A stretch of DNA of 64,000 bases from Schmidtea polychroa (lineage: Eukaryota). This document shows, in pieces, positions 23,891-62,041 of the stretch. The translations under genes were made by a program, and so were the position numbers. Numbering within the stretch: the first letter of the stretch is position 1; each line of letters opens with the position of its first letter. The notes beneath the pieces were generated by a model, which did no database searches, was not told the origin of the DNA, and worked only from the letters and a program-made list of their open reading frames with translations. The stretch covers positions 23,622,001 through 23,686,000 of the forward strand of contig CM097885.1 in NCBI GenBank assembly GCA_044892525.1, read 5' to 3'.

Positions 23891-23899
23891 AGTATGATA

Positions 23900-24010
23900 A
23901 CCACTTTATGCTCATTGGATGCTCAACGTTGGTACTGTGGGCTTATCTTAGTGCACTATAATCTTCAACTATTCATGTGGGTTCGTGGACTACTGATAGA
24001 AGTTTTGGGT
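23900..24010 (-). repeat. Partial copy of the structured-terminus family (upstream domains only; tRNA-like domain missing)
   Basis: 16-nt exact match TCAACGTTGGTACTGT (23923-23938 = 32128-32143), plus collinear blocks ACCACTT, TAG..CACTATAAT and GGGTTC..GGACT..GATAGAAG shared with 32105-32235. Confidence 0.75.
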
Positions 24011-24069: not shown

Positions 24070-24450
24070 GTCAATGGTTTTTGATTTTCAAACAATATGT
24101 TTCCAATACTACAACTCTTCTTGCACCTGCTCTGACATCATCTTTGACGGGATCGCTTTGTTCAAACTTTGGCGAATGTGTCCCGCTGCATGGGCTTATT
24201 TTTTGGCTCTTCACCAATTTCTTTCTTTTAACAAGTTTACAACAACTCACATGATGTGGTAAACTATTTTCCCACTTTGTTATTTTCTGGTTGGTTTGAT
24301 CCACTGGAAATTTTCCAGATGTGTCCCAATCATCAATGTCGTTGTTAGTTGCTTATTGACTGGTTTGTCCGTTTGTGCCTTCCAACTGCTGAACTTTGAG
24401 TTTCAACGCTTTGACTTTCATCTGACTCTTTGATTTTGACTGACAAGCAT
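24070..24450 (-). pseudogene. Decayed homolog of the 32348-32818 coiled-coil/basic ORF
   Basis: Minus-strand translation MKVKALKLKVQQLE aligns to VELRALRLRVRELE, and AHAAGHIRQ to KAARARIRQ. Same position relative to the structured terminus. Stops and frameshifts present. Confidence 0.6.
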
Positions 24451-27400
24451 CCACTCAAAACACTCGAATTAAAACACTTAGCTGTACTGCACCGTGTCTT
24501 TAGTCAGTTAAGTCCATCTGCTTTGTCATAGCTTTCATGTCTGAGTAAAAAATCTTTACGATAAGTTCCACTAACATAGAAATGATTAAAATAAATAATC
24601 TAAAACCCCAGTCGTTAGTGTCAGCCCTCTGTTTTAAGAAAATTTGTACTCCTACTAATTATAGATTCATCACTCATTTTACTTATTACCTTATCGACTT
24701 GCATCATTCTTACTCATTTCATTAGGACAATAAAAAAATTGAATCGTTTAGGGCATTCGGCACGTAGACTCATAAAATTAATAAGATAATGCAACAAATT
24801 CGTCAAACCATAAAGTTTATTAAGATAATGGATATGAAAAATAATTTGTAGACAGGTGGAATAATTTCCGATCGGTGCTGGGAATCGCACAGCTTCGAAT
24901 CTTTCTTTCCACCCATCTCAAACGGAAAATTGCGGTGTGATGGTTATGCTTTGCACGAGCAGTGGTTGACGTGCTAAATTTAAAGTGGGCTCCATCTTTT
25001 CTACTACTGTCACGAGCTCCATGTCGTCATTTATCACAGCACACGAGTGGAGGAATTTACCTAAAATGTTTGATTCCATAATTCAATACGGAAACGTGAC
25101 CATCATCGTATCTCAAATTTAACCTATTGAGAGCTTTACAATTACCCATAATTTCGGAAACGATAAATAAACAATTGCATGTAAATTCGATCGGCATTTA
25201 TTCCCTCAAGCTGTCTCGGTCATCACATGTGCAATCAAGAATTTCACAGTATCTTTATTCCAGTAATGTACGGTAGTTTTCCTTAGACGGGTTTTTATAT
25301 ACGTCATTGTCAAAACCTCGTGACATTCTCATTATTATATTTTATAGTAGTATTCCCATTTTGTATTTTATCATGACTCTCTCCTTTTTTATATGTCTCG
25401 CTTTCATATTTTATAGTAATATTCCTTCTTTGGTGTCTCGCGTTCACATACCATCGTGTCATTCTTGTAGTATATAATGGGCTCCATGTATCTTGATTAT
25501 GTATTGACGCAAATTTTAATAAACTGCCAATTTGAGTTTCCTGAGTCTATTGTCTCGTTCTTCTACAGATTTTCTCTGCAGAGTGTTAAGAATTCTCTTT
25601 CTCAGTATGGCTGCATTTTACAATTTCAGATCTGTGGTAATTATCTCTACACACCGACCCTGTGGGTTTGCAAAACCATCCACTACCTATTATGTTCCTA
25701 ACGTCTTCGTTACCAACTAGTTAACTCAATTCCACATCTTGTCGTATAATATTTCTGAACAGCCGATGCAAATATCATTGGCTTCGATCGACGTAACAAT
25801 GCATTTGGTGTATTTGCCGTAAATTCCTACTACCGATAACTTTTTTTCTTTCCAAGTTTTGATTGTATTTATTTGCTCTCGCCGTCGTGTTTTCACTGTT
25901 TTTGTTGAATTAACGTTATACCGTCGCAGGCCTTCCTACGACTCTCAAAAATTATTAAAAGAAATTCTTCAATGAACAACTTTCGACTTTGGTGTTGATA
26001 TCTCATTTTATAGGGCTTCATTGATGTTTTTACATGTTTGAATTTAACTCGACTTATAGTCATATGTGCATGCTATTTTCCGACACTTTTCGATCAAAAT
26101 TTATGGAAAAAGTCAGTTTTTGTATATAGGAATGACATATAAAAATCATTTGAATTATTGTTCTTCATCAAATACGTTTATCATTATTTAAAAAGGATTG
26201 TTTTGATCCATTATATGCAACTTTAAGCAACCAATAATTCATATAAATAAATAATAATACCGTATTTATTTGATTGTTAGCTAAACTTTAATTTAAAGCA
26301 GTAATTATGATCGTTTTTCGTTTTCCTGTCGGTATCGATAGTAAGCTACATTAAATATTCTACTAGTGATATAACACATAAAAATTTAATATTTTAATTA
26401 ATAACATTGCTGTCATTTCACATAAAATTTTGTTACAAAATTTAGAAGATGTTGGTTTTTAAAATCATAAAAATGTAGGTTATCTTGAAATTTATTGTTA
26501 TATCATTTGAAACTTTAAAAATGAATTTATTATTTGCAAATAAGCAAAGCTACTAAAGTAATTTAAAAACTAGAAAAATAGTTCGGTTTATAATCGAATA
26601 AATAAGGTATTAAATTTCATACGAAATTATCTATTAAATTGATTTTGTTTTAAAATTGTTAACATTTGAAATTTATTGTAATTTAAAAAATACAGATATG
26701 TAGTCAAATGCTAAAAATTTGATGATCCGAATCATGTTGGCGATTAAATTTATTATTTATCAAGGTTATTTATTTGTATTTATGATAAAATTTATTAAAA
26801 ATCTTTTTAACAAGTATGAAAATAATATTTATTCTATTCTATTATTTTTATCAATTCGTTTTTTTAATTATTTATCCACATTTCCAACGGCCATTTTAAA
26901 TAATTTTTATATTTATATTGCAATATTATCGGTAACTTTTATTAATTTTATATTGTAAATTATTTATTGTCTATTCTTTAAAAATGGTTTTCATAATTTT
27001 TAAACTTAGTTATCGCTACGTAACATTTCCGTAAACTAAGAAATTTTCATTGGTTTCTTACATAATAAAAAAATGTCAGAATTTATTTCCAAGTAATTTT
27101 CTTTTACCTTTAAGGCTTATTTAAATAATTGTATTCCTGTATTCATTTCATCAGTTGTCAATAGTTTAAGATAATAAAAATTTTGATATTTTAACTAGTA
27201 AAAATATTGAATTTATTTCAAACTTTACAATAAAAAGTTTAGTTTGGCCAAATTTATACAACATAAATCAATAACAAACTTTTTCTTTAACTTTCAACAG
27301 TCGATTGGTGGCATGAATTTTTGTATTGATTTTAAAAGTGTTGGTATATATTCAAGTTTTGTTTCTTTAACTCTTTCACTTCCTACCTTTAAGAAATTGA

Positions 27401-29082: not shown

Positions 29083-30395
29083 GATAAAATCACATCGTCA
29101 ATATCGATGCCGATTTCACGAATGAAAATGTCATCATCTTATTCCTCATCAAAATCGGGGCTCAAGCCACCAAAAAGCGGGCCAATCTCTTCGAATATCT
29201 GCCCGACATTATCCGGATCCGAGTCGTCGTCAAAGTCAGGATTCAAGCCTACTTCAGAAAATATCTGACCGTCATCAGTTTCGTCAGATCCTAAATAATG
29301 CCCATATGCCAGACTATAATTAGACCCCACTCATAGTCTCTTGTTATCGTTGTTCGACAAGGCTATTTTACTGTTCTTAAAAGTAAAGAGCTTGTGGTTA
29401 CGCGTCCCTATTCTAGTTTGTGGCACCGTATATACTACGCTGTTGTTGTAGCAGTCTAAATACGACTGGTGCCCTATCTCAGTATTACCAAGTTGAACTC
29501 CCTTAGCCCTAAGTGTTGCCTTATCTCCTAACAAACTATAACACTTAGGGCGCAAGAAAACCCACTCCTTATAACCAAGCCCTTTACTTTCGTCCTTAAA
29601 TTTCCCTATCACAGAATTCAAACTCTTTGAATACAAAGGTTGAGCAGGATCATAATTGCTAGTATCTAGAAGATTATCACGAATCATTGCCGGCAAAAGA
29701 GTGTCAAGCTTACAGTGCTTTATCTCTAAGAAAAAGGAGTCGGTGTCGCCGGCAACGATATTTATATCACAGTTAAACTCTAAACGATATTTTGCCAATT
29801 CTATATACTGTACATTCTCAGTTTAGACAGGTCTAGCACAAATTGGCCAATGTAGCTAGGCCTGTCTAAACATATAGAATCCTTATTTAGATGTGCAGCA
29901 ATCAAGTCATCATCAATTTTGATTTATTTCTTGAAAGTCGGCTTTGAAGCATATACAATCATCTTTTCAGCTGAATTGCATAGCCTCAAATTCATCCGTT
30001 TTTTTAAGGTTTTCCACGGATTTCCCATACAGACTATTATTAAATAGTTTATATAAATCTCTGTGCAGCTCGCATGTAGAATTTGAGCGTAAATTAGTAT
30101 TGGTCATTATATAATCTTTAAAAATGGGTGCATGCTTAAATTTAATTGCCCTATGTACATTTTTAATAATAGCCTCTAATTCTATATACAACTTGAGAAG
30201 TCGCCAATGAAGAACATGGTTCTTCTTCGGCCAATGCGTGAGCATCAGCTTCTCAACTTTCGAATCTGGCGGGCACATCTTTTCCGGAGCAATGGAAAAT
30301 CATTCAAAAAATCATGCACACACTGAGGGATATCGATATCCACTTCCATAGTATACCCATATGGAAGATTTTCAATATCCTCATTCATACATTCA
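29083..30395 (-). pseudogene. Protein-primed family B DNA polymerase, 5'-truncated and frameshifted
   Basis: YKLFNNSLYGKSVEN (motif B), AGDTDSFFLE (motif C), EWVFLRPKCYS, LRAKGV, KIALSNNDNKR..SLAYGHY. Confidence 0.92.
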
Positions 30396-30488
30396 TTCAA
30401 AAAAATATATTTGAATATATTTTTCAAAATAATATTAATAATAATAATAATATTAATAATCAAAACAACAAAGGAAAGGATACATTTA

Positions 30489-30800
30489 TTAAACATCAAA
30501 TTTTTTATACAATAACCAAGCTAAACAATGTTGACCACATGTTTGGTTCAATGGATTTTGAAACAGTTTTATTATACACAATAGGCTTTCCCATTGTTTG
30601 TAGTTTTGATATCAACAAAGCAGGGTAATAAAAACCCATAGGATCGAACACGAATATATTACCAGGTTTCATATATATATAGCTATCAATGTCCAACACC
30701 AAGATTAGACGATTGAGTATTGACGATTATTGCTTGATTATTGCTCAAATATGGAATTTTATCAAAAGGAAAAACTCCAACAAATTCATTTCCCAATATC
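30489..30800 (-). pseudogene. Adenain-like (C5) cysteine protease
   Basis: FVGVFPFDKIP..IVNTQSSNLGVGH (catalytic His region), IFVFDPMG (Asp), and after a frameshift QNPLNQTCGQHCL (Gln/Cys). Confidence 0.85.
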
Positions 30801-30900
30801 TGTTTTCCGATTTTATTGACCTGATCAGAACTACTTTAATAAATCCTGAGTATAAAAAAACAACTTACTCCATGACAACTTTTTGTGTTTCTGTATACAT

Positions 30901-31890
30901 TTATACCAACACGGTTCTATTTGAATTAATTTGAACTTCATTTTCAAATACTCCATATATTATAAAATGTACCGGTTCAGTAATGGCTTTTGCAAACTTT
31001 ATATCCAGTCGTAAATTTCCATTTTGGGGTAATTGACTCTGATTTCAATCAAAATCGGGGGCTAAAACAAATGTAAAAAATGGGTATTTGCTTTTAAAGT
31101 CTTCAAGAGTTATTCCGCAATTCAAATTTTTATCTAAATAACCCAGATTTCTAACAATACTCTGCATATATGTCGCACAGTAATTGTCATTCTCGAAATC
31201 TTGAATATATGTTTCTCTATAATCAGTATTTTTCGATAAAGTCAATGATGTAACACCAAAGTTTTTGAAAATTGAGCTGGAAGCAGTATATGATCCATTA
31301 TATTGTGTTTCACTTTGAAATTTTATCAGAATAAAATTAAGCATTCTTCTATCACCAAATATTTGTTCTTTATAGAATGATGAAGCACCATTAGCAATAG
31401 CAAATTGTACAATTTCCTTTGTTTTTAATGGATAAATTGCATGTTTTGAATTAAGACCCAATTGATGACCCGCTAATACTGAGGGGTCCACTCGAACTCT
31501 TCTCACCAATAATTTTGCATCAACTAATTGACATATTGGTGCACTAGTAAGAGATAATGCAGAATCAGACCTTTTCAGTCTAATATGTACATTAACTCCC
31601 GGTAGTAAATATTTCGGTTGATCCATAAAATCAAGTTGTAATGATGAGCACATGGTGAAAACCTTTGAGCCTTTTACCCACTTTTTTCTTTCATCATTAC
31701 TACCATCACCCATAGGAGTAAGAAATGTATTTTTAGTATCGGAATTGTAATTTACAATAGTTTATATTAATGCCTTGTGAATGAATGTATTATTTCCGCC
31801 CTCAATTTTGATATTATTAAATAAATTTTATAAATAAATTAAAAATAATAATCCAAGTGCTTATTAAAAAATCGAAATACCAACGTTTTA
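30901..31890 (-). pseudogene. Polinton double-jelly-roll major capsid protein, 5'-truncated, internal stop at 31045
   Basis: LQLDFMDQPKYLLPGVNVHIRLKRS, DAKLLVRRVRVDPSVL, and past the stop NGNLRLDIKFAKA..YGVFENEVQINSNR, typical of Polinton MCP. Confidence 0.85.
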
Positions 31891-32026
31891 ACAGAGTCTA
31901 TGTTATTCTGTTAGATTAGTCTGACATGCAAGGTATTTTAATTATTTTTTTGGTCCCCAGATATATCCGGTATTCACGGTATTGATTATTTACTCAACTC
32001 AAATAAAATCTTTAAAATCAAACAAT

Positions 32027-32085
32027 TGGTGGGTTACAGGTATTTTCAAGGTTTCTACCTACTCCTGCTGTTTCCAGCGCAACCC
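32027..32085 (-). ncRNA. tRNA-like three-way junction with encoded 3' ACCA (copy 1)
   Basis: Minus strand: GGGTTGC-GCTG GAAA CAGC-AGGAGT-AGGTA(13 nt)TACCT-GTAACCC-ACCA. The G-U pair works only on this strand. Expression not shown. Confidence 0.6.
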
Positions 32086-32347
32086 AGGATACAATTTGTA
32101 ACGGACCACTTGATACCCGTTGAGTAATCAACGTTGGTACTGTATCAAGGGTTTGGGTACTAGCAAAAAGTGAGCATGCTTAGCATACTATAATTGTCTA
32201 GCACCCACTGGGGTTCACGGACTGCCGATAGAAGGCCTATGTCCGGTTTCTTTAGTCCCCGTCATGATAATCAACCTTATAGAAAAATCACAATGCCCAG
32301 ATATGAGTGTACCAGTAAAGATTTATTCATAACAACAAGATCGGAAC

Positions 32348-32818
32348 TCATAGGATTGTAGTCGGTTCTTTCGGTGCAGACTCTGACAAAGTAGCATGGA
32401 GGGTCAATTGGGCCTGACAGGCTTGGCGGATTCTCGCCCGCGCCGCTTTACCCGGCCGGATCTTCTTCTTCGAGATCTTTGATGCATATTCCTTCGGTTG
32501 GTGAAACAGTTCACTCATAGGTCGGATCTTGGAAATGACCTCTCGATCAAGGTCCTGTTGGTGTACCTTGACCTCCAGCTCTCTCACTCTCAGGCGGAGG
32601 GCCCGCAACTCAACTTGATCTTGGGCACTCTGGGGTTGCAATTGAGTGATGAGTTTCATCCGCTTCTTCATCTCTGCGGGCGGGAACCAGGTGCTCTCGA
32701 AATTACGGCAATGGGCCTTGATTCGTGTTAACTTGACCCGGTATTCTTCCACTTGTTGCGCCCGCTCTCTATCTGCTCGTATTTCTTCCAGGAGTTTCAA
32801 CACTAAAATAAATGACAT
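32348..32818 (-). CDS. Unknown coiled-coil/basic protein, 156 aa, ending ~260 bp before the tRNA-like terminus
   Basis: Intact ORF, visibly more GC-rich than its flanks. Heptad-like ELRALRLRVRELEVK and basic KKKIRPGKAARARIRQ. Homologous remnant at 24.1-24.45 kb. Confidence 0.6.
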   Translation of the reverse strand: MSFILVLKLLEEIRADRERAQQVEEYRVKLTRIKAHCRNFESTWFPPAEMKKRMKLITQLQPQSAQDQVELRALRLRVRELEVKVHQQDLDREVISKIRPMSELFHQPKEYASKISKKKIRPGKAARARIRQACQAQLTLHATLSESAPKEPTTIL

Positions 32819-33307
32819 TAGAAATTGTTACCTCAGCATTGAGTGACGCACGTTATTAATGCTAAATGAATGTCGTCCCTTCGTCACCGCTCCCCTCTGC
32901 GCACATCTAGACCTAGTTCTATGGATTTTACCAAAGTTTATGGGACGGGTCGTAATGGCCAACGCTACGGAAAATTATCGTCGGTGGTAAAAATGGCTCC
33001 CGTTTAAAGAAATCATTGAAGTCAAAACGATGCACACAATGGAATTAGTATTGATAATTAATACATAAATAAACAATTGAACCAAGAAAATTATCGTCAA
33101 TAATAACACTGGTTAAAGAAGATGATCAAAATAAAACGATATCAATAATGAGATTAGTATTAGTGACCAGAACAGAACTAAGCAGTTAGATCAACACGAA
33201 CTGCCAAGACATACAAGGTACTATAAAAACATTCATCATATTACATGATTCGCACTGTAAATTAGCAACAAAATCATTTCGGGCTGTACAATGTTTAATT
33301 ATGAGTC

Positions 33308-33790
33308 CTAATCTTTGCTCGTCCCAATCTCCTTGGTGAAACTGGTGCCTTTTCGTGGTCGTCCGCGTTTTCTTTGCCGATTCGGTCCACACGGGGAAGT
33401 TCTTGGGTACTCCAGCCCACGGCGAAGGGCCGCGGTGCGCCTAGGATGACACTGAGCTCGAGCGTACCCATCAACATCCTCGAGTTCGCCGGCCAGGGTT
33501 GCTGTTTCGAGCCTGTACAGTCGATCCACCGCTCTCTTCGCATCGTCGAAGGCGTCGATCAGAGCCAAGGACGTATGGTTGAGGTACGGCTCTACCTTCG
33601 GGGTCACTGGGACCACGTTCTGGTAGGTCCAATCATGGATCTTGTACCAGATCCATCTGGACCTCAGGCAGGTGAGTGCTTCCTCCCGGTCCAGTCTGGT
33701 GACCTCGTCTGCCTCCTCTTGGGTTGTTCCGAGGCTCGAGTCAGTTGATGAGGGACCGGCCTGTACATTTCTTGGTCTAGTGCTGGGCAT
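33308..33790 (-). CDS. Unknown 160-aa protein with an AT-hook-like KRGRPRK near the C-terminus
   Basis: GC-rich ORF, same strand as and upstream of 32348-32818. The true 3' frame is uncertain because overlapping ORFs exist. Confidence 0.5.
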   Translation of the reverse strand: MPSTRPRNVQAGPSSTDSSLGTTQEEADEVTRLDREEALTCLRSRWIWYKIHDWTYQNVVPVTPKVEPYLNHTSLALIDAFDDAKRAVDRLYRLETATLAGELEDVDGYARAQCHPRRTAALRRGLEYPRTSPCGPNRQRKRGRPRKGTSFTKEIGTSKD

Positions 33791-35229
33791 GTCTATAATG
33801 ATAAAATTTAATAGAAGTTTCGTTCACGCGCCCCAGTTTCGTCAACGAAGAACGCTTGGGTACGAGGTTAAATTTCGAACTCTAGCATTATTCCATCAAA
33901 CCGCTAAACGATTTTTCTGATTTAAAGTGGAACTCCCAACCCCTAGTTGGTTCGCGCATTAAATGGTTCGAATTACAGAAAGAAAATTTCTTTTAACTTA
34001 AGAATTTACAATTTACAAATTATTAAGTTTATTAAATTAACTATTTATAAGTTATAGATTACCAGGTCAAAGCTGAAGTATTTAAATTTAAAATTAATAA
34101 ATTTGGATCTCGAAAGAAAAATAGAGGGGAATAAGGTAAGAAAAAAAATAGACAGAATAAAAGTCGGATTTTTGTTTATATGTTTCACTTTAATTTTCTA
34201 CTATATTGAATATTAGTTATTTTTAAAATAATTTTGTAGTTTTCTCGCTACATTTAAATAAATTTTGCCATAATATTCTTCGTAGGAATTATGCTACGCA
34301 GACCCACTATGGGAGGGGCATTGCTATGGGTCTTAGGTTCGTATCTAGCCCCTAGCAATTCCTAACCTTAGTGGTAGTGAGTGGCTTCAGCTTCAGCATA
34401 GTTCGGGCAAGTATTTTCTTTTCTACCTTTGACATTTTTTAATTTCAGGAATTGAAATCTTGTTGGCGAATATATTTCGTCAAGGTTAACTGGATAATTT
34501 ATTTTCGTATCGTACCACTTTATGAGCTAGGTAGTAGGTAATTTTATGTGGAACTTTTAACAAAATAATCTATGGTTCGTAATATGATAATTATTAAATA
34601 CCTTTATTAATACTTTTACTTGCATTAAAGTAATCTATGGACTCGTATAGTTAAACATCATAAAACATTATTTATATATTATTTCTAGGCTATGATTTTT
34701 GACTTAGCTTAGGGAGTTTGATCCTATAAAACCCAAGAAATAAGGGGGATTCCCTGTCCTTCCTGTCGTGCATGGGTTGACTACTGGGGTAACCTGGGTT
34801 AGTTTCGCGTGGGTGTGACAGGTTTTGCCCGAAAAGCAGAGTTCCTATTGACAGAGTCGATAGTGATTGGCGCATTTAGGAGAGCGTATGCATCGCCCAT
34901 TTGGTCAGCCAGACTGAGTTCGTCGAGGGTATCCTTCGGTTTGTAGGGTTGTTGCTATTATTAGAAGTGGTTCTATTGGCTGATTCTTATCATGAGGAAA
35001 AATAAATCGATAAGGTGACTTTTGAATTTTCTATTTATAGTATCATTTTAATAAATCAATAAATTGGTTTAAATGAATTATAGAATTATTTGGTGGGCAA
35101 GGACGAGGTTTTGGGTTACGGGTTTCGTGGAGAACAAATATGGAGAGGATGCAAATACTTTATTCATGGTATCTTTGGTTCTATTAAATCAGCTAAATTA
35201 GATTAGTTATTTGAATGATAAAAAAGACT

Positions 35230-43210: not shown

Positions 43211-43801
43211 CAGAAAATAGAAATATTTAACAAATAAATTATAGTTTAAACTTTTCCCAACCTTTCATCGATAATAGGCTTATCATATTTTCTCTTTTCG
43301 AACTTAAAATGGAAATTATATAAATGTGAATATTCATTTAAATCAATATTAAAGTAATAAATGAAAGAAATATATCAAATAAATAAATGAAAACATTTTA
43401 TGAAAATTTGTACCTTAATTGGATACTTGAACCATACAAAAAATATAAATTAAATCAGTGTTTTACGGAAGAAGACTGGATAATGAAATTTCATTCTTAT
43501 TGGTGACAGAAGTGACTATTAACGATTAAAATGAATGATATAAAATTTCAAATTACTTACATTGTGACTCCGAATCAGAGTCTAGTTCATCCCCAATATA
43601 AAATAGCAGTGGGGGCATCAACAATAATATTCCGATCATTGATTATTTGACATTCTTCATTCTTAATAGGAGCATCCCCAACACCAGTGGGGGCACCAAC
43701 AATAGTTTCGGATCATCGATTATTTGACAATCACCTGAAAATTTTATTAATTAATTATTTAAATAAAATAAATTTACTCGATGATAATTCCATAATAATA
43801 T

Positions 43802-43858
43802 TGGTGGGTTACAGGTAAGCAAACATTTTACCTTTTCATGCTGTTTCCAGCGTAACCC
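43802..43858 (-). ncRNA. tRNA-like three-way junction with encoded 3' ACCA (copy 2)
   Basis: Minus: GGGTTAC-GCTG GAAA CAGC-ATGAAA-AGGTAA(9 nt)TTACCT-GTAACCC-ACCA. Upstream hairpin CTTGATAC/GTATCAAG at 43882-43922. Confidence 0.6.
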
Positions 43859-44193
43859 AGAATACAAACAATGTCTTACCGCTTGATACCCATTGAGTGA
43901 TCAATGTTGGTGCTGTATCAAGTTGGTGAGTGTCCACAAAAAGCGACCGCATTACCTGTCCGATTCCTATTGGCTCCTATGACTAAACTGTTGCCCCAAA
44001 TTTAAAACACCTGTTTCGACCAGTCAGACGGGAGAATGACGTCTACCTCTGACTGGCAGTTATTGTTTTGGTTTTTGTCGCGTCTGTGTGCAAAATTGTT
44101 GTCAAATTGATGTGCGCGCACAGACGCGAAGAATTGAAAATTGATTTTGAGATTTTGCTGGAAGTTTGGTGTTGTTTTAAATGGAGAAAAAAA

Positions 44194-44292
44194 ATGGAAG
44201 GTGTCATTGAAATTAATATTCATCCAGTGGCTCTTTTCTCAATAACTGATGCATTTGAAAGAAGGTCTGACGTAAATTCTCGTGTCATTGGA
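44194..44292 (+). pseudogene. EIF3F: eIF3 subunit F N-terminal fragment (33 codons)
   Basis: MEGVIEINIHPVALFSITDAFERRSDVNSRVIG matches the eIF3f MPN start (LHPVILASIVDSYERR....RVIG). Similarity stops at RVIG, there is no GT donor there, and no downstream exon was recognised in the window. Confidence 0.75.
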
Positions 44293-45200: not shown

Positions 45201-45399
45201 AGGGCTGCTTCTGAAATATAATTTTGATCTTTTATTCTTTGTTATTGAATTCTTTGGCTCCGGTTACGATTTGATTTTTGTTATTCTTTATATTTGAGGT
45301 ACTGGGTGTTTTGTTAATTCAAATTACAACTATTATCAACAGGCAGATTTTATTATTGTGGACAGATGAAGACACAAACAAATAGACAGAATAATTAAA

Positions 45400-46157: not shown

Positions 46158-46989
46158 TCATTTTCTCGCTCTATTGCTTATTTTACTTATTTTATATAAG
46201 TCATTTGGCAAAGGTGTTTGACACTTATAATTCATTAGGTTAATATACTCAGTTGTTAGGTTACGTCTATCTAATAATCGAACAAAAATAGCTACTTGTT
46301 CGTTAATATTAAGGTGATTCATGTATTTGTAGTCTTTAATTTTAATCTTAGTACAACAGCTGTCAAAGTAAGCGTTTATTATAGTCTTGTGATTTCTTAC
46401 TTCGTCATCTGTATTTATTATTATTTTAATTAAGTTAGTTTTATCTATCGTTAATGGAGTATTGTCTAGATTGGTTACTGAAGGGATATTTTTAGAGGCG
46501 ATAGTATTAAGTGCTAATACATTTTTATTATTGTCAATATATTTTGCATTAACAGTTGTAGTGATTAGAATGAAATTTTCGAAGTACATATTTAGCTTTA
46601 TTTTTCCCTTTCTACGTTCAAAAATTTCTTGGTCACTTATTGGTTTAATAGAAAAGGGTACTTTATCAATTTGATCGTCGATTAGTATCATGTCTTCTCT
46701 TTACGGAATATTTTTGCGAGAAGTGAGGTCTTAGTAGATTAATAGTAATTTCGGTTTTTGGTTCAAAAATTTTAGTACAAAATATAAGATTTGAATAGTG
46801 GGGTTTTGGTGACCTAATAAAATTCTTATGACTTGATTTGAGTTGGCCGAAGGCCGGCGAATTACGACTACTGAAAAAGGTTAAACATTTGTTCTTATCG
46901 TTAAGATGGGTAAAATGGGAGGTCGACGAGCTGCGTATACTTTTTTCGTCCTCTGGAGGAGGACGAAAAAATTTTTTAGCATGCTCATC
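46158..46989 (-). pseudogene. Unknown ORF (intact 177-aa 3' part 46158-46691; 5' part has stops)
   Basis: One frame from MSMLKNFF with three stops leads into MILIDDQIDK..; no family recognised. Confidence 0.4.
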
Positions 46990-47396
46990 GGATCTGAAAT
47001 TATTAGGATATTTAAACAAATTTTCTTTTTTATTAAGGTTTTCATTTTTGATTTTAGATTTTCTTTTCTTATTTCTATTTCTATATTTTTTGTATTTAAA
47101 TCTTTTAAAATTATTATGATTATCACTAAAATAATTAAAATCTTTTAAAAACCAATTAATGTTTTTCGAAAAATGACAAGTTTTTATTACTTTCCACGTT
47201 ATTATTAGTTATTATTATTTTTAAAATTTTTACCATTATTTGAATTTTTAAAATTATTACTTCTATTTTCATTAATTAATTTATTGGCACTATAAGTGTC
47301 ATTAGCATTAAAACTATTCGTATTTTTAAAATATTTATTATTACTTCCCACGTTATTATTTTTTTAAATTATTAATATTTATTTTAAAATTATTAA

Positions 47397-49949: not shown

Positions 49950-50345
49950 TCATAGGACACTTATTTGTCGAATAATAATCATTATACAAAAACAATAATT
50001 CTGATTATAATTTACCTTTGACTGCCATATAGTTATAGCTTCATCAAATGCGCTCAAGAAGTCCGTGTGCTGCTCTTTAACCAATTTTCTTATTATATAT
50101 TGGTCTGCGATAAGTTTCCCCGCATATGTGTACGTATTCTGACTCACCTCTCTAATAATGTGGCTAACGAATTCCCAACATGCGACCTCCAAGTTCCTAG
50201 ACATCTCAATGGTTCCTGAAAAATAAAGTAAAAGGTGTTTAAGAATTAAAAACTCATTGATTTCTGCCCCAGTGCTAGCCAATGTTATATAGAGTAATTC
50301 TACTAAGCTCTGAGGATTTTCTCTAAAAATATTTAGCATGCTCAT
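49950..50345 (-). CDS. Unknown 131-aa protein
   Basis: Intact ORF. Shares a 19-nt start context with the 46.99 kb ORF. Confidence 0.4.
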   Translation of the reverse strand: MSMLNIFRENPQSLVELLYITLASTGAEINEFLILKHLLLYFSGTIEMSRNLEVACWEFVSHIIREVSQNTYTYAGKLIADQYIIRKLVKEQHTDFLSAFDEAITIWQSKVNYNQNYCFCIMIIIRQISVL

Positions 50346-50412
50346 CGGATTTCTGCGCAGTGCTATCGAATGTTATATTGGAATGAATTTTATCTGAGAT
50401 CATTTTAAAAAT

Positions 50413-52141: not shown

Positions 52142-52649
52142 ATATAAATTAATGTAAAATACGATAATTCGTTCCTTGCCGAAAAAAAATACTAAAAAAA
52201 ATTTATGTACATATACATTTATTGAATGAAAATTATATACATGATCATGTTGTTAAGGATGGTAAATCATCTTGATCTTTCTTTCTGTCGCGGAATAAAC
52301 CGACCTGTAATACGAATTCATTTTACAAAAATTAAAAAGTATTCGAAATGATAAGTTTGTTGTAATGATACATAACTAATTTTTTTTTACTAAAAAGCTT
52401 TCTAGTGACGTTTGTTTTTGGCGACGCTTCAAAATTTGGTGAAAAGGCAATACAGCATTATCATTAAATAAATTTGTAGCGCCGACAAATTTGGGAACCG
52501 ACATCGTTCACATTAATTTCTTCACTTATCTTATTCATAGTTCGTTAATAATCATCCACGTTTAGTACGACATTTCAACGAGAGTCTGATTTACGATCAG
52601 GTATAGGTGTAGGCTAGGAAGAATTTTTTTTCATTAAATCAAGTTTTCA

Positions 52650-52996
52650 TTTTTCATAACTACAATTCGTCATTTTCCCACGAAAATTCGTCGACGATAA
52701 TTTCTTCTCTCATCGCTCACCCCGTCAACACTGAAAAATCTGCTAATTCAATTCCAAAGAAACGTAAACGGCCGTCCCGAGTCGATCGAACAGCAAAACG
52801 AAGAGAAAAGATGGAGGCACTAGAGGCTTCGTTATTTGCTGCCCAATCAGCCATCACCAAGATCAATACCAATCCTCAGATAGCGGTACCACCTGATACC
52901 TACAGAATAATTTCATCGGCGACCGTAGCACTGACGAAAGATCCTCGGCTGCAGGTTGACATGGATGCCTTGCTGATCGAAGGCGATGCGATGTAG
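52650..52996 (+). CDS. Unknown basic/NLS-bearing ORF ending 80 bp before terminus copy 5
   Basis: Frame is open upstream of the listed ATG: ..IPKKRKRPSRVDRTAKRREKMEALEASLF... The basic motif resembles KKKIRPGKAARARIRQ of the 32.3 kb ORF. True start unknown. Confidence 0.45.
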
Positions 52997-53076
52997 TTAG
53001 ACGAATTCCGATTCATGAATGATTGACAACGTTTTTCACGTAACGGCTGTCGAATGGTATAGCAACATTGTATTCT

Positions 53077-53132
53077 GGGTTCCGTTGGAAACAACATGAA
53101 GGAATTAAATATAAATTTTCTGCAACCCTCCA
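53077..53132 (+). ncRNA. tRNA-like three-way junction with encoded 3' TCCA (copy 5, divergent)
   Basis: GGGTTCC-GTTG GAAA CAAC-ATGA-AGGAA..TTTCT-GCAACCC-TCCA. Compensatory C-G to T-A change in the GAAA hairpin. Confidence 0.6.
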
Positions 53133-53520
53133 GTTCTGTGATATACAATTTATAAGAATGAAAGAGCTAAATTTAATAGATCCCTTTTAAATAACCTGCA
53201 ATTCAGGATGGCACCCACCTTTCCTACACAATTTGTTAACATTCTCTTTTTTGTCAAAAATTTCACAAGGACGACCAACTTTCGTATCATAAGACACTAC
53301 CTGGTGACCATGTTTGAACTGGCTGATCCAATTGTGTATTATGGTTCAAGAGTGACATATATTGTCATAGGTTTCCAATTGAAACTTTCCATATATACTA
53401 ATCTTGTATCTCATTACACAAATTTACAAAATATTTGATATTAACAGATTATTATTGTTTCCAATTACTATTATAATTTAACCAGTTTTAGAACAATTCC
53501 AATATTGTGAATCATTAAAT

Positions 53521-56500
53521 CAGAGCCGGATCTATGGGGGGTGCAAAGGATGCGATTCACCCGGGCCCCCTCTCAAAAGGGCCCCGCCAAACACTTTTAT
53601 CTTTCCACTTTTTGTTATTTATATTTTTAAAAAAATTGCACTCATTTTCCATTTTTTATAATTTTTTTTTTGACAAAAAATAAAAAAAAGATAAAATTAT
53701 TTTTCCAAAAAAGACATTACTTTTTTTCGAAAATGGTTGTTGTAATATTTCTGCAGCTGTATGAAAATATAGCAAAGAAAATTCTTCGATTCAATGTTTA
53801 ATGGGTAGGGAAATTTTTAAATTAGATCTAGCATCACTGTTTGTTGCAAATACGTCAAAATTAAATTATTCCGCCATTTTCAAACAGCAAAAAGCAAAAA
53901 TGTAAATGTGCGTCTGTTTTTTTTACTAAAAATAATTAATTTAAAAAGTGATTTATATTAAAATTATAAAATTACTTGTATTTTGTTTTAAATATTTGTG
54001 CAAAACTACTAACGTTTATTTGATTTGTATTTTTTATATGTACATAAATATTTGTTTTTGAATAGAAGTTTTATATTAATATATTATTTTGTTTGACAAC
54101 AGCCACAATGTAAGTGTGACCTTTTTTTTCTAGAAGAAATAATTAATTTAAAAGCAATATTGGTATATTTCTTTTTAGAAAATTGTTTCCGAACAATGGA
54201 TATCAATTTTATATATCAATATATATGAAGATTTTAAAATATATTGTAAATGATCCATTTATCTACATTAATCTACTTTAACTGAGAACTGTCAAATTAC
54301 TGAAAAGCTACTAAAACATATACATTTATTTTTGAATAATTTTTGAATAGACTTTTTATATTTTATAAACAACAACCAAAAAGTAAGTGTTTCTTTTTTA
54401 TTAGAAATAATTTATGTATTTAAAATTTTATATATATATAAATTATATATATTTATATTTATATTTATACATATTTATATTAAAACTATAAAAATATTTA
54501 TACATATTTCTTTTTTTAGAAAATATCCCTGGAAAACTACTAATGTATATTAGATTTATAGATATACTAATTTTTGAATAAATTTTGAATAGTAATTTTA
54601 AATTATTTTGCAAACAACCAAAATGTAAGTGTGAGCCTTTTTTACTAGAAATAATGAATTTAAAATATTATTATTTTTCTTTTTAGAAAATTTGTTTTAG
54701 CATTGGGATATCAATTTTATATATCAATATATGTGAAGATTTTAAAATATATTCTAAATGATCCATTGTGAGCCTTTTTTACTAGGACTAGGACTATTAT
54801 AAAATAATTTAAAATTATTTATATTTTACAATCTAAACAACAAAATTATGAAAAGGACTTACTTGTCAGGAGCAGAGAAACGGAAAATATCAGAACGCAA
54901 GCAAATCGAAGACAAAAAGCAGCGTTTCAGTTTGAAATCGTGGTGTCAAAAAAGTTTAGTTCAAGTAAGGTTCCAGTAAGAAACGATGAAACAGAAACTC
55001 AAAATATTATATCTGTGGATGTATATGAAAATAACAATCATACCATAATAGATTTACCGTCACCGATTAGTATTTCTGTTGAAAAAAACAAAAACCCTAC
55101 CACAGACGATTTGGCGACTAGTACCGTGAATGATTATTTGTCAGATAATGAACTTCTGGTATCTCCATATGAAGGCAATAATAATAATGTTAGTTTAGAT
55201 GTAAATACGTTTAGTACTGATCCGAATGATTGGGCATTTCCGACATCTTCTGTTTTTAGATCTGCCGTTATTAAGTTAGGCCCAAAACAGATAAGTCTTA
55301 AAAACTTTCCAAAGAGTAGAAATGAAGTGTTTTGCTTTTGTTGTTTCTTGTTTGGAACTGAATCAGAAAAAGAAAATCGTTTCATTAAAGGATACAATAA
55401 GTGGCAAAAATTATCAGATATTATCCAAAAGCATGAAACTGGAAGTTTTCATATAAATTGTTTCCTGAAATGGAAAAAATTAGAAGATAATTTAAAAAAT
55501 GATAACTACAATTGATCAGCTTCTAATTTCATCAATAAATAAGAGGAAACAAGAACTTATTCAGATTCAAAGCAGAATTTTAGATGCTATTATCTTTTTG
55601 GCCGAACATAATTTAGCTTTTAGAGGTACTAGCGAAAACATTGGAAGTCCGAAAAATGGTAATTTTTTAGGTTTAATTGAATTTTTAGCCAAATATGATA
55701 CGATACTGAACGATCATCTTGAAAAAATTAAATCTAAAAACATACATATCCACTACCTTTCTAAGACTATTCAAAATCAGTTTATTGTATTACTGGCTAA
55801 TGAGATATCTAAAAAATAATTTCAAAAGTCAAAGTCCAAATATTTCAGTATTCAGGTAGATTGTACGCCTGATATATCCCATAAGGAACAAACTACATTA
55901 ATTTTAAGATACGTTTTTCAGGATCTCGAAGCAAAACAGTATAAAATAAATGAAAGTTTTTTATGTTTTCTAGAGGCTTCTGACACAACAGGAGAAGGAC
56001 TAACTAAATTAATATTATGCGAGCTCGAAAGAAATGGTATTGAAATTCAAAATTGCAGAGGACAAGCTTATGATAATGGTGCAAACATGAAAGGCAAATA
56101 CAAAGGAGTCCAAGCAAGAATATGTGATTTAAATCATCTTGCGTTATATGTTCCTTGTTTAGTTCATAACTTTAATTTGCTTTTATGCGATGCTGCTTCA
56201 TCCTCTCTACAGTGTAAGAACTTATTTGGAAATTTACAACGTCTTCATCCACTAAAAGTTGGGAAATTTTAATAAAATACGTACATATAACATTAAAACC
56301 TTTGAGTGAAACTCGTTGGGAGGCCAGAGTCAGTAAAACCTGTAGTATCTCAATTGCCGCTAATACGTGAAGCTTTAGAAGAACTAGCAGCAACATCAAA
56401 TGATTCAAAAACAGTTTCATAAGCCAATGCTATACTAGATTATATCGTAACAATGCCATTTCTTGTATCATTAATTGTATGGAAAAATATTCTAATTGAT

Positions 56501-57674: not shown

Positions 57675-57909
57675 CATTAAATGAATGAAATTTCTCTCTA
57701 AAAGTCATGATTGATATAAATTTCATTATAATATTTGCTCAAATTTACATTTTACAATAATAAATCATTTCTTATTCATTAGTTCTTGTAATCAACTATT
57801 TTAATTTAAAATTAAACGAACCAGATCAGGATATTTACAAATTTAGATTCATGAAATTTAGTACCTCTTCAAATATTTTCATTATACTATATTTGAACCT
57901 AATTACAAT

Positions 57910-57966
57910 TGGTGGGTTACAGGTAGTCAAACATCTTACCCTTTCGTGCTGTTTCCAGCGTAACCC
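57910..57966 (-). ncRNA. tRNA-like three-way junction with encoded 3' ACCA (copy 3)
   Basis: Minus: GGGTTAC-GCTG GAAA CAGC-ACGAAA-GGGTA(11 nt)TACCT-GTAACCC-ACCA. The terminal G-U pair is valid only on the minus strand. Confidence 0.6.
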
Positions 57967-58461
57967 AGAATACAATGATGATCCTATCAATTGATACCCG
58001 ATGAATGATTAAGTGGGTTTCTTACATACTCTTCTTCTCCGCCTGAGAGCATCATCAAATCAAGTTTCAACGGTTACACAACGAATATTAAGCCCTTGCG
58101 CGCATTCTAAATTCTAAATTATAGAATCGAAATCAAAACAATTTGAAGCAATGAAAACAAACTAATGCTGGATCAAAATTTTCTGTTGTTTGATGACTGA
58201 ATTTAATCTCAAAATTACCGCATCATGAATTCAAAATTATACAGAAATTAGAAATAAGCAATCCGAAGCTGAGATTTGGTGATTATTTTTCGGATTTCGA
58301 GTTTTTAAATAATGCATTGTTAACAACAGGTTATTATGTGTACACGTGAAATTCAGTTTTGCAGCGTACTAGCGCTATTCTTAGGCAATCCAATCTTGAT
58401 TGATAGCCGACAATAAATGTTGTCTTTCAACATTCATTTTCATTATACCTTAGACACACAA

Positions 58462-58572: not shown

Positions 58573-58602
58573 TGGTCGGTTGCAGGTAACCTACATTATA
58601 CC
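58573..58602 (-). repeat. Truncated terminus copy (last hairpin, 3' stem strand and ACCA only)
   Basis: Plus TGGTCGGTTGCAGGTAACCTACATTATACC aligns with TGGTGGGTTACAGGTAAGCAAACATTTTACC (43802-43832). Confidence 0.5.
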
Positions 58603-60735
58603 AAAATTTATTTTGAGGATTTTTGATTGTGAAATATTTTGTAAATATCCTATGCGTGATTTTCTTTCCACCTCCAGCTCTTAGTTGGGTTGTCTGTAAA
58701 AATTTACAAACTACGGTGCCTGTCCCTTCGATGCGGGCGTGTAGGTTGATGATTTTAATCTTTATAGTTGAATAACTTGGACTTGCATGTTTTGTGTTTG
58801 ATTTAAAAAATTAGACTTTAGTTTTTGTGACTTTTGAAAATTTTGGGAAAATATTGATTTCTGAAAATGTGGGAAAAATAATTTTGGGTGTTTTTAAAAT
58901 TTGGGGAATTTCGAGTTTGAAAAATTTGGGAAATTTATTTTTTAGACTTTTTAAATTTTAGGAAAATTTTGAATTGGGCAATTTATTTTAGGGATTTTTT
59001 GAGCTGGAATTATTTATTATCCTATGTGATTTTTTCTTGTAATTTGTTGATTTTTTCCAAGTATTTTTATATAAAAATTTCTAAGTCGAGTGGTGTGACC
59101 TTCATTTTAAAGTACTTTCATATTTAATAAAAAAGTTTTCTAAGTATTTTATTAAAGCTTTTGTTCATTGTCCCACCGTTTGTTGAAGAATATGATTTTA
59201 TTTCTATAATATAAGATTTTCTATGTTTGATAATATACGAATGATGTTATATTATGGCATTTGATGCTGATGTTATTCACTGTCTCGTCGTGTGTGAAGT
59301 ATATGATTTTAATTCTATAATATAAGACTGTTAGGATCATCATAATATATAGAAGTTGTTAAATTATGACGTAAATTTAGAGACTTTGGAGCTCATTTCC
59401 ATGGAAACTATACATTTTTTCTATATAAAGACTATATATTTTCGTGTCCGTTATAAAATTCTGTGTTGTCCTGGAATATCTTCAGGGGGTAGTGGTGTGG
59501 ATGGGACATATCCATCTACTTAAATGCATTTTTCAAAAAAATATTTTAATTTAACTTCAACACAAAGTATCAAATTATTTAGTTAACTTAATTGTATGAA
59601 AAATGATGTACTATAATTTCGATTCAGCTTATTGTCGACACTTCAATCTCGAATCCTAAGAAAATTAGCTGTGCAATATTATCAATAAATCAAATTCAAA
59701 CATGTCTAACGAAGTCACTGAAATCGAACTGGAACTGAACAAGTCGAATCAACTGAAGCAGTTACTGAAGAAGTTGAAGAATCATCAAATCGAGTCAAAA
59801 TCAATGGATCAAATATGCCAGAAAAGCAGGAAACAATAACCTTGAGCTTATTAACAATGATATCTCTGATGATGGTCAAGATCTTCAACAATGTTAATTA
59901 CAATAAATTCTTTCTTCAAATTAATTGTATGTATGTAAGGGAATATGTAAGAATAATCTATATTTTTTTAATTTGCAATTTGCTTTATTGAAATTAGTCC
60001 GGTAAATTTATTTTTGGTTCATTAAAATGCAAGATTTATTTACTTTATCTGATAGCAGTTTGCAATAACTTATCGATAGCATGTATTGAATTCGATCTAT
60101 AGTTTATGCTGTGGTTCATCGTTATGGTAGATAGTTGCTACAGCAATTAAAATTCTAACAACTAGTGTGGAACTATTTTTATTAGGCAATTTTACGAATA
60201 GACTTTACAATTTATAAATAGGATTATTGTATACTGTCAATAAAGTAATTTATTTTATTGAAAAAGGCAAACGTAATTAACAAAACCTTTAAGCTTGATT
60301 ATAATTTGCAGCTAAACATGAAACAATATAGATGAGAACTCTAATGAAATTGTTAGGTCTGTATAACTTATTAGTTTGAAATATTTAGTTGACGATGATA
60401 TCCCAAATTTAGTTTGAAAGGTGAAACGATAGATTTTTATTCACAAGTCGATTAAAATTTCGATAAATAAACTATTTTTGTGTATAATAAAATTTAACTG
60501 ACTAATGTAGATCTAATTTTCTTTCCATTCCTATGTTTTCCATTGAATGTCTAGCAAAGTAAAGACCATGAACCAAATTGGAGATATTTTCTTTATCAAT
60601 AGACCGTGGACCTGAGAATTTTAACTAATTATGGTTCTCAGGAGCGGGCTTGCTTTTTAATAAAATTCATCTATTCGGCACATTACCAACTTTGTCTATT
60701 CAACAGTGTCGGGTGATAGGGAAGCGTTGTATTCT

Positions 60736-60791
60736 GTGATAAGCTGGAAACAGCATGAAAGAGTATAATTTTAGTTACCTGTAACCCAGCA
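60736..60791 (+). ncRNA. Decayed tRNA-like three-way junction (copy 4; ends AGCA)
   Basis: GTGATAA-GCTG GAAA CAGC-ATGAAA-GAGTA..TACCT-GTAACCC-AGCA. Upstream hairpin TCGGCAC/GTGTCGG at 60675-60712. Confidence 0.5.
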
Positions 60792-61048
60792 GCAAAATCC
60801 TCAACGTGGTAATATAAATGCTTAAAAATATCTTAGATATTATATAATAGATACGCTTAAATTTATTACAGATAATTTATTAAAGGTAAAGAAAACTTGT
60901 CAAGTTTAAAAATATTTCTATAATATTTTGCATGATGATTGAAATGGTTAGGGCGAGGGTTATATAATGTCAATTATAAATAATGTAATTTAAATCGAAT
61001 TTATAATTTATAATTATTTGAATCTGAAAGTGGCTGGTTGTCATTAAC

Positions 61049-62041
61049 ATGGAGAAATATATATCAAAATTAATGGCGGTTGTTGAATTTTTGTTGACAT
61101 ATCTTCAAATCATCTTATTGTTTGTTGGAATTTCTATCATGGCATTTGGGGTCGTCCTTATTACTTCAAATGATATTTTAGTCGACGACATTTATAAAGA
61201 TGTGACAAGTTCCATGATAACCTACATGAACGACCACAATATGACATTCTCTGAGCGCTGGAAAGGCAATAATACCTGGATAATGCACCGAGAAATATTA
61301 TTAGCAACACAATATTTAATAAAATCCGCCTTTCGATCTTTCGTATGGTTTGGGAAATTTTACATTTTTTTCGGACTAGGAATTACTTTGACTTGTTTAA
61401 TTGGACTAATTGGATTCTCAACTAAAAGTATGGTTATCGTGCTAGTATTTTCACTGGGGTCTCTAACAATGGCGGCGTGCATGATTGAATTTATCATCGA
61501 TTTGACTGAACGAATATATTTCATTAGCTATCAAACCTTGACTGAATTATACAGCTTCTTTGATCCGGAAATGTGCAGTATTTGCTGGACGAAAAGGAAA
61601 ACAAAAAGATTAAGATATCTCAAAGATCATTTGTCGAATCTTATTGCAGTTGGGTCGGCTGTCTATCAATGTTGTGGAATCGCGAGTTATAGAGAAATGA
61701 TTAGGATTTATAACCAGTCAATTACTCCAAAACAGTGTTGCAAACCCAAAGTGAGTGATAAGGACTGTCAAAGGAAGCTTCCTAAATTTATTTTTAAACC
61801 ATGCCTAAGACCCCTTGCAAAGTTTATCAAACGTTATTCGTTATTGAGATATAATGATTTAATATTTGGGCCGATTATAATCGCTCTACTGAGTGCTGCG
61901 ATTGGATCTTTTTTTATCACAGTCTTTGACATGTATGAACAACAATCGCATTGCTTCCGTATTTACAAGGAAAGAATGGCGATAAAATCAAACTCTAAAC
62001 AAAAGGAAATCATGAACGATGAAGATTTTAATATGTTGTAG
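61049..62041 (+). CDS. Tetraspanin family protein, intronless, 330 aa
   Basis: Four hydrophobic segments, CCG motif (YQCCGIASY), P-x-x-CC and further Cys in the large extracellular loop; intact ORF. Confidence 0.88.
   Translation: MEKYISKLMAVVEFLLTYLQIILLFVGISIMAFGVVLITSNDILVDDIYKDVTSSMITYMNDHNMTFSERWKGNNTWIMHREILLATQYLIKSAFRSFVWFGKFYIFFGLGITLTCLIGLIGFSTKSMVIVLVFSLGSLTMAACMIEFIIDLTERIYFISYQTLTELYSFFDPEMCSICWTKRKTKRLRYLKDHLSNLIAVGSAVYQCCGIASYREMIRIYNQSITPKQCCKPKVSDKDCQRKLPKFIFKPCLRPLAKFIKRYSLLRYNDLIFGPIIIALLSAAIGSFFITVFDMYEQQSHCFRIYKERMAIKSNSKQKEIMNDEDFNML

Follow-up and report, generated by a model that had tools for sequence, protein, structure and literature searches.

A folded sequence motif of about 120 nt recurs as a dispersed family in a 64,000-nt stretch of Schmidtea polychroa DNA (GenBank assembly GCA_044892525.1, contig CM097885.1, positions 23,622,001 to 23,686,000 of the forward strand; hereafter the window, with positions counted from its first letter). 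The explanation that we favour, at a little short of an even chance, is that the motif corresponds to a folded 3'-end RNA signal of an RNA-borne mobile element and that this signal is recognised by the enzyme that copies the element.

The window is AT-rich, with roughly 27% G+C overall (16-46% per 2 kb; six N gaps), and is rich in broken mobile DNA, including a fragment of a protein-primed DNA polymerase and piggyBac-type, hAT and pogo-type pieces. BLAST and HMM searches of the window located five full copies of the motif and two partial ones. Copies 1 (32025..32148), 2 (43800..43921) and 3 (57908..58030) lie on the reverse strand, and copies 4 (60675..60793) and 5 (53023..53134, the whole motif including 2 nt beyond its CCA) on the forward strand. 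Of the two fragments, both on the reverse strand, f6 (23899..23939; E 0.0003-0.02, HMM) comprises the upstream domain alone and f7 (58573..58602; E 0.003-0.07) the 3' end alone, that is helix C, the closing strand and ACCA. Pairwise identity among the full copies is 64-80%; an HMM made from the remaining four copies recovered copy 5 at E 3.7e-15, and in a covariance-model search all five scored E 6e-21 or lower, the next match being at E 0.29. Since copies 4 and 5 have ten private states in common, as compared with at most four for the other nine copy pairs, the copies are not independent. The motif is a dispersed repeat family with subfamilies and copy-level decay.

Database searches gave no name for the family. 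Rfam returned no match at gathering score in the window, with chance-level E values of 1.4-9.6 around copies 1, 2 and 5, and ARAGORN no tRNA gene. Copy 2, the one copy of the five used for this search, matched nothing among phages and plasmids at E 1, while in prokaryotic genomes a strict motif pattern had no hit and a loose pattern had 22 loci, none of which fits the model (best E 0.25). No description of the motif was found in the literature covered, which took in few subscription papers and no repeat catalogues of the Repbase kind, and the family may already be catalogued elsewhere as an anonymous repeat.

The predicted fold runs from an upstream bulged hairpin through a linker and a near-invariant leader into a three-way junction. 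There a closing helix of 7 bp (A) opens onto arm B, 4 bp long with a GAAA cap, and 6 nt of junction lead on to arm C, 5 bp long with a variable loop. On an alignment made from sequence only (MAFFT), 121 of 137 cells are paired (88.3%), as compared with 34-40% for control structures slid along the same alignment. Double changes are found in 7 of the 29 pairs against 2.1±1.2 in shuffles, none of 500 shuffles reaching seven, and three of the seven sit where the register of copy 5 hinges on gap placement. A conservative test therefore counted 125 cells, omitting the upstream domain and arm C of copy 5; under nulls that ignore relatedness, applied to five related sequences from whose own rows the structure was derived, four double changes remained where 0.8-1.0 are expected by random substitution (p 0.004-0.010). 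Broken pairs numbered 12 against 18.4 or 15.8 expected (p 0.010 or 0.105, depending on the transition rate), so that this statistic is no longer significant when the transition rate is high. The best covariation in the set is that of the upstream outer stem of copy 4, TCGGCAC/GTGTCGG, to which the preliminary description had also pointed: all seven pairs form and two are double changes, but in the same copy three of the seven pairs of the closing stem are broken. A double change also marks the inner upstream stem of copy 2, and copy 5 contributes one of the four conservative double changes, in the GAAA hairpin. Single copies fold modestly (z -1.8, -2.1, -0.4, -1.5 and -0.2 for copies 1 to 5). 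Family-wide covariation is thus real yet thin, and at the level of the family the comparison of copies supports selection on RNA structure.

The direction of the substitutions adds to this picture. Among changes that keep a pair, 12 run from A/T to G/C and 6 the opposite way, whereas among those that break a pair 7 run toward A/T and 2 toward G/C (Fisher p 0.046, each double change entering as two), a bias that we read as compensation in active source elements followed by decay in an AT-rich host. Such decay bears on the possibility that the motif belongs to the host, as a cis-element or a family of non-coding RNA genes on which selection still acts at each locus. Copies 1 and 2, which retain 29/29 pairs each at 80% identity, and the position of copies 2 and 4 about 270 nt from host-like genes would fit such a family, but in each of copies 3, 4 and 5 a domain is broken, and f6 and f7 are fragments. 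In copy 3 the junction is complete (16/16 pairs) and the upstream domain has decayed (5/12 broken); in copy 4 the upstream outer stem is compensated, the closing helix has decayed and AGCA replaces ACCA. Pol III A and B boxes, as expected of a tRNA or tRNA-derived SINE head, occur in none of the five copies, a consistent downstream T-run is likewise absent, and the setting is a transposon graveyard. A host RNA family is thus very improbable.

An excess of G·U over A·C cells (11 against 3) and the invariant GAAA loop favour the strand given here for the motif, which is also that of the open reading frames (ORFs) upstream of copies 1 and 5. Together with the GAAA loop, a weakly paired or unpaired stretch, TTGTAT-CTG, is invariant in all five copies. 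A 3-bp pseudoknot between leader and junction was considered and not adopted, as copy 1 would need a register shift. Unpaired positions that do not vary, in leader, junction and tetraloop alike, within a compact multi-helix fold at a 3' boundary, are what an undescribed self-cleaving or self-processing ribozyme might show; it would trim the transcript of the element and so play the part of the hammerhead in Penelope-like elements, for which PMC6431247 gives a precedent. Simple patterns for hammerhead, twister and HDV-type cores, however, matched 0/5 copies, and the Rfam ribozymes gave no match, and we regard a ribozyme as decidedly unlikely. One weak hammerhead-like string is present in the window, at 5054, and is unrelated to the motif.

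The preliminary description had been centred on copy 5, in which it saw compensatory changes in several helices around a retained CCA. Copy 5 begins with an upstream hairpin domain (53023..53053; outer stem 53023-28/53048-53, inner stem 53030-33/53042-45) that falls 8 nt short of its length in copies 1 and 2. The near-invariant leader (53067..53076) follows, with 53067-70 as the 5' strand of a proposed outer helix, P0, and 53071-76 as an internal loop, and leads into the three-way junction (53077..53128), composed of helix A (53077-83/53122-28), hairpin B (53084-95), the junction itself and helix C (53100-04/53117-21, pairing dependent on register). TCCA and a 2-nt trailer close the copy (53129..53134), 53131-34 being the proposed 3' strand of P0. 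Every letter quoted in the preliminary description is present at 53023-53132 of the forward strand, while its reading of them as compensation holds in part. The change from GCTG/CAGC to GTTG/CAAC around the GAAA loop stands as a true, gap-free double change from C-G to U-A. The upstream stem TTGACA/TGTCGA does pair at all six positions, but homology with the stem of the other copies requires an 8-nt deletion, and the MAFFT alignment places it in another register; moreover, the change in its 3' arm is common to copy 4 and so is not an independent event. Similarly, the second hairpin, AGGAA/TTTCT, is fully paired (5/5) only with a junction shorter by 2 nt, and the MAFFT register breaks three of its five pairs. 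The closing strand GCAACCC cannot be counted as compensation at all, since its fit to the arm of copy 1 is a comparison across copies and in copy 5 it faces GGGTTCC, with a C·C mismatch in helix A.

Statistics for copy 5 are in keeping with this. In its 3' domain alone there are two double changes against 0.5-0.6 expected (p 0.07-0.10) and four broken pairs against 4.8-6.1 expected (p 0.13-0.43). The copy has a folding z-score of -0.17, and the structure first proposed for it comes to -17.8 kcal/mol, compared with -21.4 for a different, lower-energy fold; in the MAFFT register, changes affect 17 of 52 paired and 12 of 60 unpaired positions. Copy 5 is a decaying copy, and covariation is a property of the family that this copy supports least. 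The earlier inference that selection acts on structure and on the CCA and not on primary sequence therefore survives for structure at the family level, but not for copy 5 itself, for the CCA or for a free primary sequence, the last of which is at odds with the invariant stretch and loop mentioned above.

The CCA is kept in four of the five full copies and in f7, but not in copy 4. The same two bases, AT, follow it in copies 1 to 3, and the same five in copies 1 and 3. One reading of these ends is a mimic of the top half of tRNA with a free 3' CCA, a genomic tag of the kind carried by retroplasmids or viral tRNA-like structures (TLSs), and the copies would then descend from an RNA replicon or virus whose ends became integrated. 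Stacking of helix A (7 bp) and helix C (5 bp) would give 12 bp before NCCA in copies 1 to 3, within the 11-12 bp of viral TLSs and equal to the length kept in the valyl ones (PMC7749636); the G+C edge just past the CCA and the orphan ORFs of high G+C that precede copies 1 and 5, both described below, would also agree with a tag. Viral TLSs, however, retain a T-loop according to PMC7749636 and PMC8127992, whereas the loop of helix C varies in length and sequence and has the T-loop consensus (TTCRA) in 0/5 copies. No pseudoknotted acceptor stem was found in the copies, helix A being an ordinary nested helix, and the TLS models of Rfam gave no match, as was also true of ARAGORN. The bases shared beyond the CCA and the possible pairing of its CA with upstream sequence further argue against the CCA as a selected free end.

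That pairing would be P0, in which four leader bases ending in TTG face CA and the next two bases, with 19 of 20 cells pairable, one double change (copy 4) and two wobbles (copies 4 and 5). When 992 candidate 4-bp helices were screened, five reached 19 cells and only P0 among them had a double change. It was matched in 28 of 300 unrestricted column permutations, and in 16 of 3000 when helices had to close helix A, a restriction chosen after P0 had been seen. The computed pair probability of P0 is at most 0.15 in all five copies, its formation in copy 5 costs +1.1 kcal/mol, and a 6x2 loop separates it from helix A. An outer helix that pairs the CA of CCA with the leader is thus suggestive only, yet the invariance of TTG, the retention of CA beside a first C that varies, and the trailer are all easier to account for with it than with a free CCA. 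The free, tRNA-like end is a weak reading of the CCA, and the tag as a whole is unlikely. This corrects the tempting tRNA-like interpretation, with covariation belonging to the family and copy 5 being a decaying member of it.

The flanks of the motif place it at an edge. In 5/5 copies the 200 nt that follow the motif are poorer in G+C than the 200 nt that precede it, by a mean of 0.138, a drop matched by 12 of 20000 random sets from the same region (48 of 20000 with 400-nt flanks). As the drop lies past all five copies, the motif sits at the 3' boundary of inserted DNA that is richer in G+C. Orphan ORFs precede it in two cases. Upstream of copy 1, on the same strand, are ORF B (32348..32818; 156 aa, with a coiled coil and a basic C-terminal helix) and, upstream of it, ORF A (33308..33790; 160 aa, 57-60% G+C); both are intact, at 44-60% G+C. 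Copy 5 is preceded by one orphan basic frame in G+C-rich DNA (52613..52997, forward), which ends 26 nt before it and for which no relative of greater length was found among 389 candidates. Two relatives of ORF B were found, both unnamed, one 82% identical and the other 34% identical and fused to a CH-domain protein. Pfam and NCBIfam gave no family for ORF B and PHROGs a lone match at E 0.049; a low-information helical model had no viral fold match at E 0.001, and Atlas matches all fell under the recognition threshold of that resource. When ORF B and these relatives were combined in a profile, its best non-self matches lay upstream of copy 5 and f6 at E about 0.3, the frame upstream of copy 5 matching weakly at E 0.27-0.31. 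ORF-rich DNA is absent upstream of copies 3 and 4.

Copy 1 and f6 also have in common an upstream extension on the reverse strand (32179..32234 and 23947-24002, 56 nt aligned), which 0/200 shuffles match and which is the sole such result in 30 flank comparisons; in copy 1 this stretch has a good fold (z -3.1). For most copy pairs, upstream similarity does not exceed that of shuffles. A T-run stands at an equal distance, -21, in copies 1, 2 and 4. An 11-mer occurs exactly at 32972-32982 and 33088-33098 (reverse) and 52693-52703 (forward) and nowhere else in the window, two of its places being upstream of ORF B and one inside the frame upstream of copy 5; with one mismatch allowed there are five occurrences against 3.5 expected, which makes it a lead only. 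Far upstream of copies 1 and 2, 34141-34160 and 45376-45394 (reverse) match at 18 of 19 bases, which is borderline for AT-rich DNA.

Several other features of the neighbourhood were recorded. Upstream of f6, 24074-26100 (reverse) holds decayed cysteine-rich frames with N-glycosylation-like motifs, envelope-like by eye and with no family match. At 29331-31761 (reverse), with copy 1 and its ORFs directly upstream, a broken protein-primed DNA polymerase (PF03175) lies beside a 238-aa frame, which we take to resemble the C-terminus of a Polinton/Maverick capsid although database searches gave no match for it. About 100 nt upstream of copy 2 is a 9-bp inverted repeat with inner pairing (44005-44055, reverse). 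An intronless divergent tetraspanin (61049-62041, forward; one relative, at 36%) starts about 255 nt past copy 4 and, with the eIF3f-like fragment described below, points to an animal genome, a short SDEHAK motif is common to two orphan frames (46951-46995 and 50308-50352, reverse), and an AT-rich degenerate tandem array with units of about 240-270 nt lies just downstream of copy 5 (53880-54770).

An alternative that also accounts for a terminal position is a single-stranded DNA structure ending a rolling-circle or other DNA transposon of Helitron-like type, with capture of gene fragments upstream. G·T wobbles and GAAA loops are also found in DNA hairpins, and neither target-site duplications nor poly(A) or microsatellite tails were found at the copies, although old copies could have lost them. 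An eIF3f-like N-terminus (44194-44289, forward; E 0.02-0.04) stands upstream of copy 2, head-to-head with it and about 270 nt away; the sequence that follows is unrelated, and no splice donor is apparent. The Helitron CTRR 3' end was however not found at the copy ends, and 118 frames from the G+C-richer regions of the window contained no match to Rep/helicase, nor to reverse transcriptase (RT) or integrase. A bulged hairpin with a three-way junction is, in addition, far more elaborate than the terminator hairpin of a Helitron, and a DNA-transposon end is improbable. A solo LTR of an LTR retrotransposon would have TG...CA ends and a 4-6 bp target duplication; no duplication is common to three or more copies within the 200 nt upstream, a reach that a longer LTR would exceed. 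A single TAACCC hexamer lies within helix A in 4/5 copies and is altered in copy 5 and f7, and no telomeric repeat run was found after the fold. A reverse-strand reading as a primer-binding site and a reading as telomere repeat were dropped by eye, as the pairing pattern does not fit, and so were resemblances to Alu, U1, P5abc, xrRNA and sgRNA strings.

The position of the motif downstream of ORF stops at copies 1 and 5 would also suit a 3'-end module of the MALAT1 type, with RNase P cleavage ahead of helix A and with the new mRNA end protected by the upstream part. Leader-trailer pairing would lengthen the stem, as it does in mascRNA (PMC8457004). Here, however, the leader-trailer helix is set off by a 6x2 loop and not by a single bulged A, the copies were found to have no U-rich internal loop, A-rich tract (the ENE type) or T-loop, and the CCA is encoded. 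Such a module is quite improbable.

We also considered an undescribed class of animal element or RNA replicon, in which different orphan ORFs would stand behind one two-domain 3' fold that is self-cleaving or switches its CCA. In the closed state of such a switch the leader would pair with CA; in the open, tRNA-like state CCA would be exposed for primer-free reverse transcription. This is not likely; if true, it would mean a retroplasmid-like or new-ribozyme mechanism within an animal nuclear genome.

On the favoured interpretation, a 3' signal recognised by the copying enzyme, the motif would be transcribed as part of an RNA intermediate, and the reverse transcriptase or replication machinery of the element would recognise the fold, probably closed by the short outer helix using the CA of the CCA, and begin copying there. 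A start of copying at the fold would keep the motif at the 3' edge of insertions, together with variable lengths of upstream G+C-richer, ORF-bearing sequence. Compensatory changes would have accumulated while different source lineages were active, and the genomic copies would have decayed later. Several results weigh against this interpretation: no RT or integrase match near any copy in the frames searched, no target-site duplications or tails, weak links between the ORFs, no ORF-rich DNA upstream of copies 3 and 4, and the low pair probability of P0.

Among known systems, the Mauriceville/Varkud retroplasmid has a structured 3' end with a CCA tag as a possible RT start, and the motif is likewise structured and followed by CCA; in contrast, its copies are nuclear and dispersed, no linked RT was found and the CCA is not invariant. 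To our knowledge, structured 3' signals of animal retroelements are mostly single stem-loops or hammerheads. TLS-Val and TLS-His resemble the motif in a 12-bp stack before NCCA and in a 3' structure shared behind different ORFs, but they differ (PMC7749636, PMC8127992) in a conserved T-loop, a pseudoknotted acceptor and an anticodon arm, while the CCA of the motif varies and is probably not terminal. The MALAT1 ENE with mascRNA (PMC8457004) similarly lies downstream of transcribed sequence and combines a small fold of several arms with pairing between leader and trailer, but is set apart by its U-rich loop, A-rich tract and T-loop and by a CCA that in the motif is encoded. Terminons, among Penelope-like elements, carry a 3'-terminal RNA fold behind variable accessory ORFs, some coiled-coil, with host fragments nearby (PMC6431247), and the motif is alike in these respects, but no hammerhead core, telomeric repeat run or RT was found here. 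Stringent LINE tails hold a structured 3' signal that the copying enzyme recognises, and the 3' stem-loops of stringent LINEs and SINEs (PMC3747384) also combine a conserved RNA fold, compensatory changes, invariant loop or flank bases and dispersed 3' ends; the present motif differs in having two domains with a three-way junction and in that no tail, target duplication or LINE ORF2 was found. The motif behaves, then, like a retroelement 3' signal but lacks tested features of each named family. As a two-domain fold that covaries, includes a three-way junction and is Rfam-negative, it is a candidate new RT-recognition signal or ribozyme, and it gives a starting point from which to trace the element behind the orphan ORFs.
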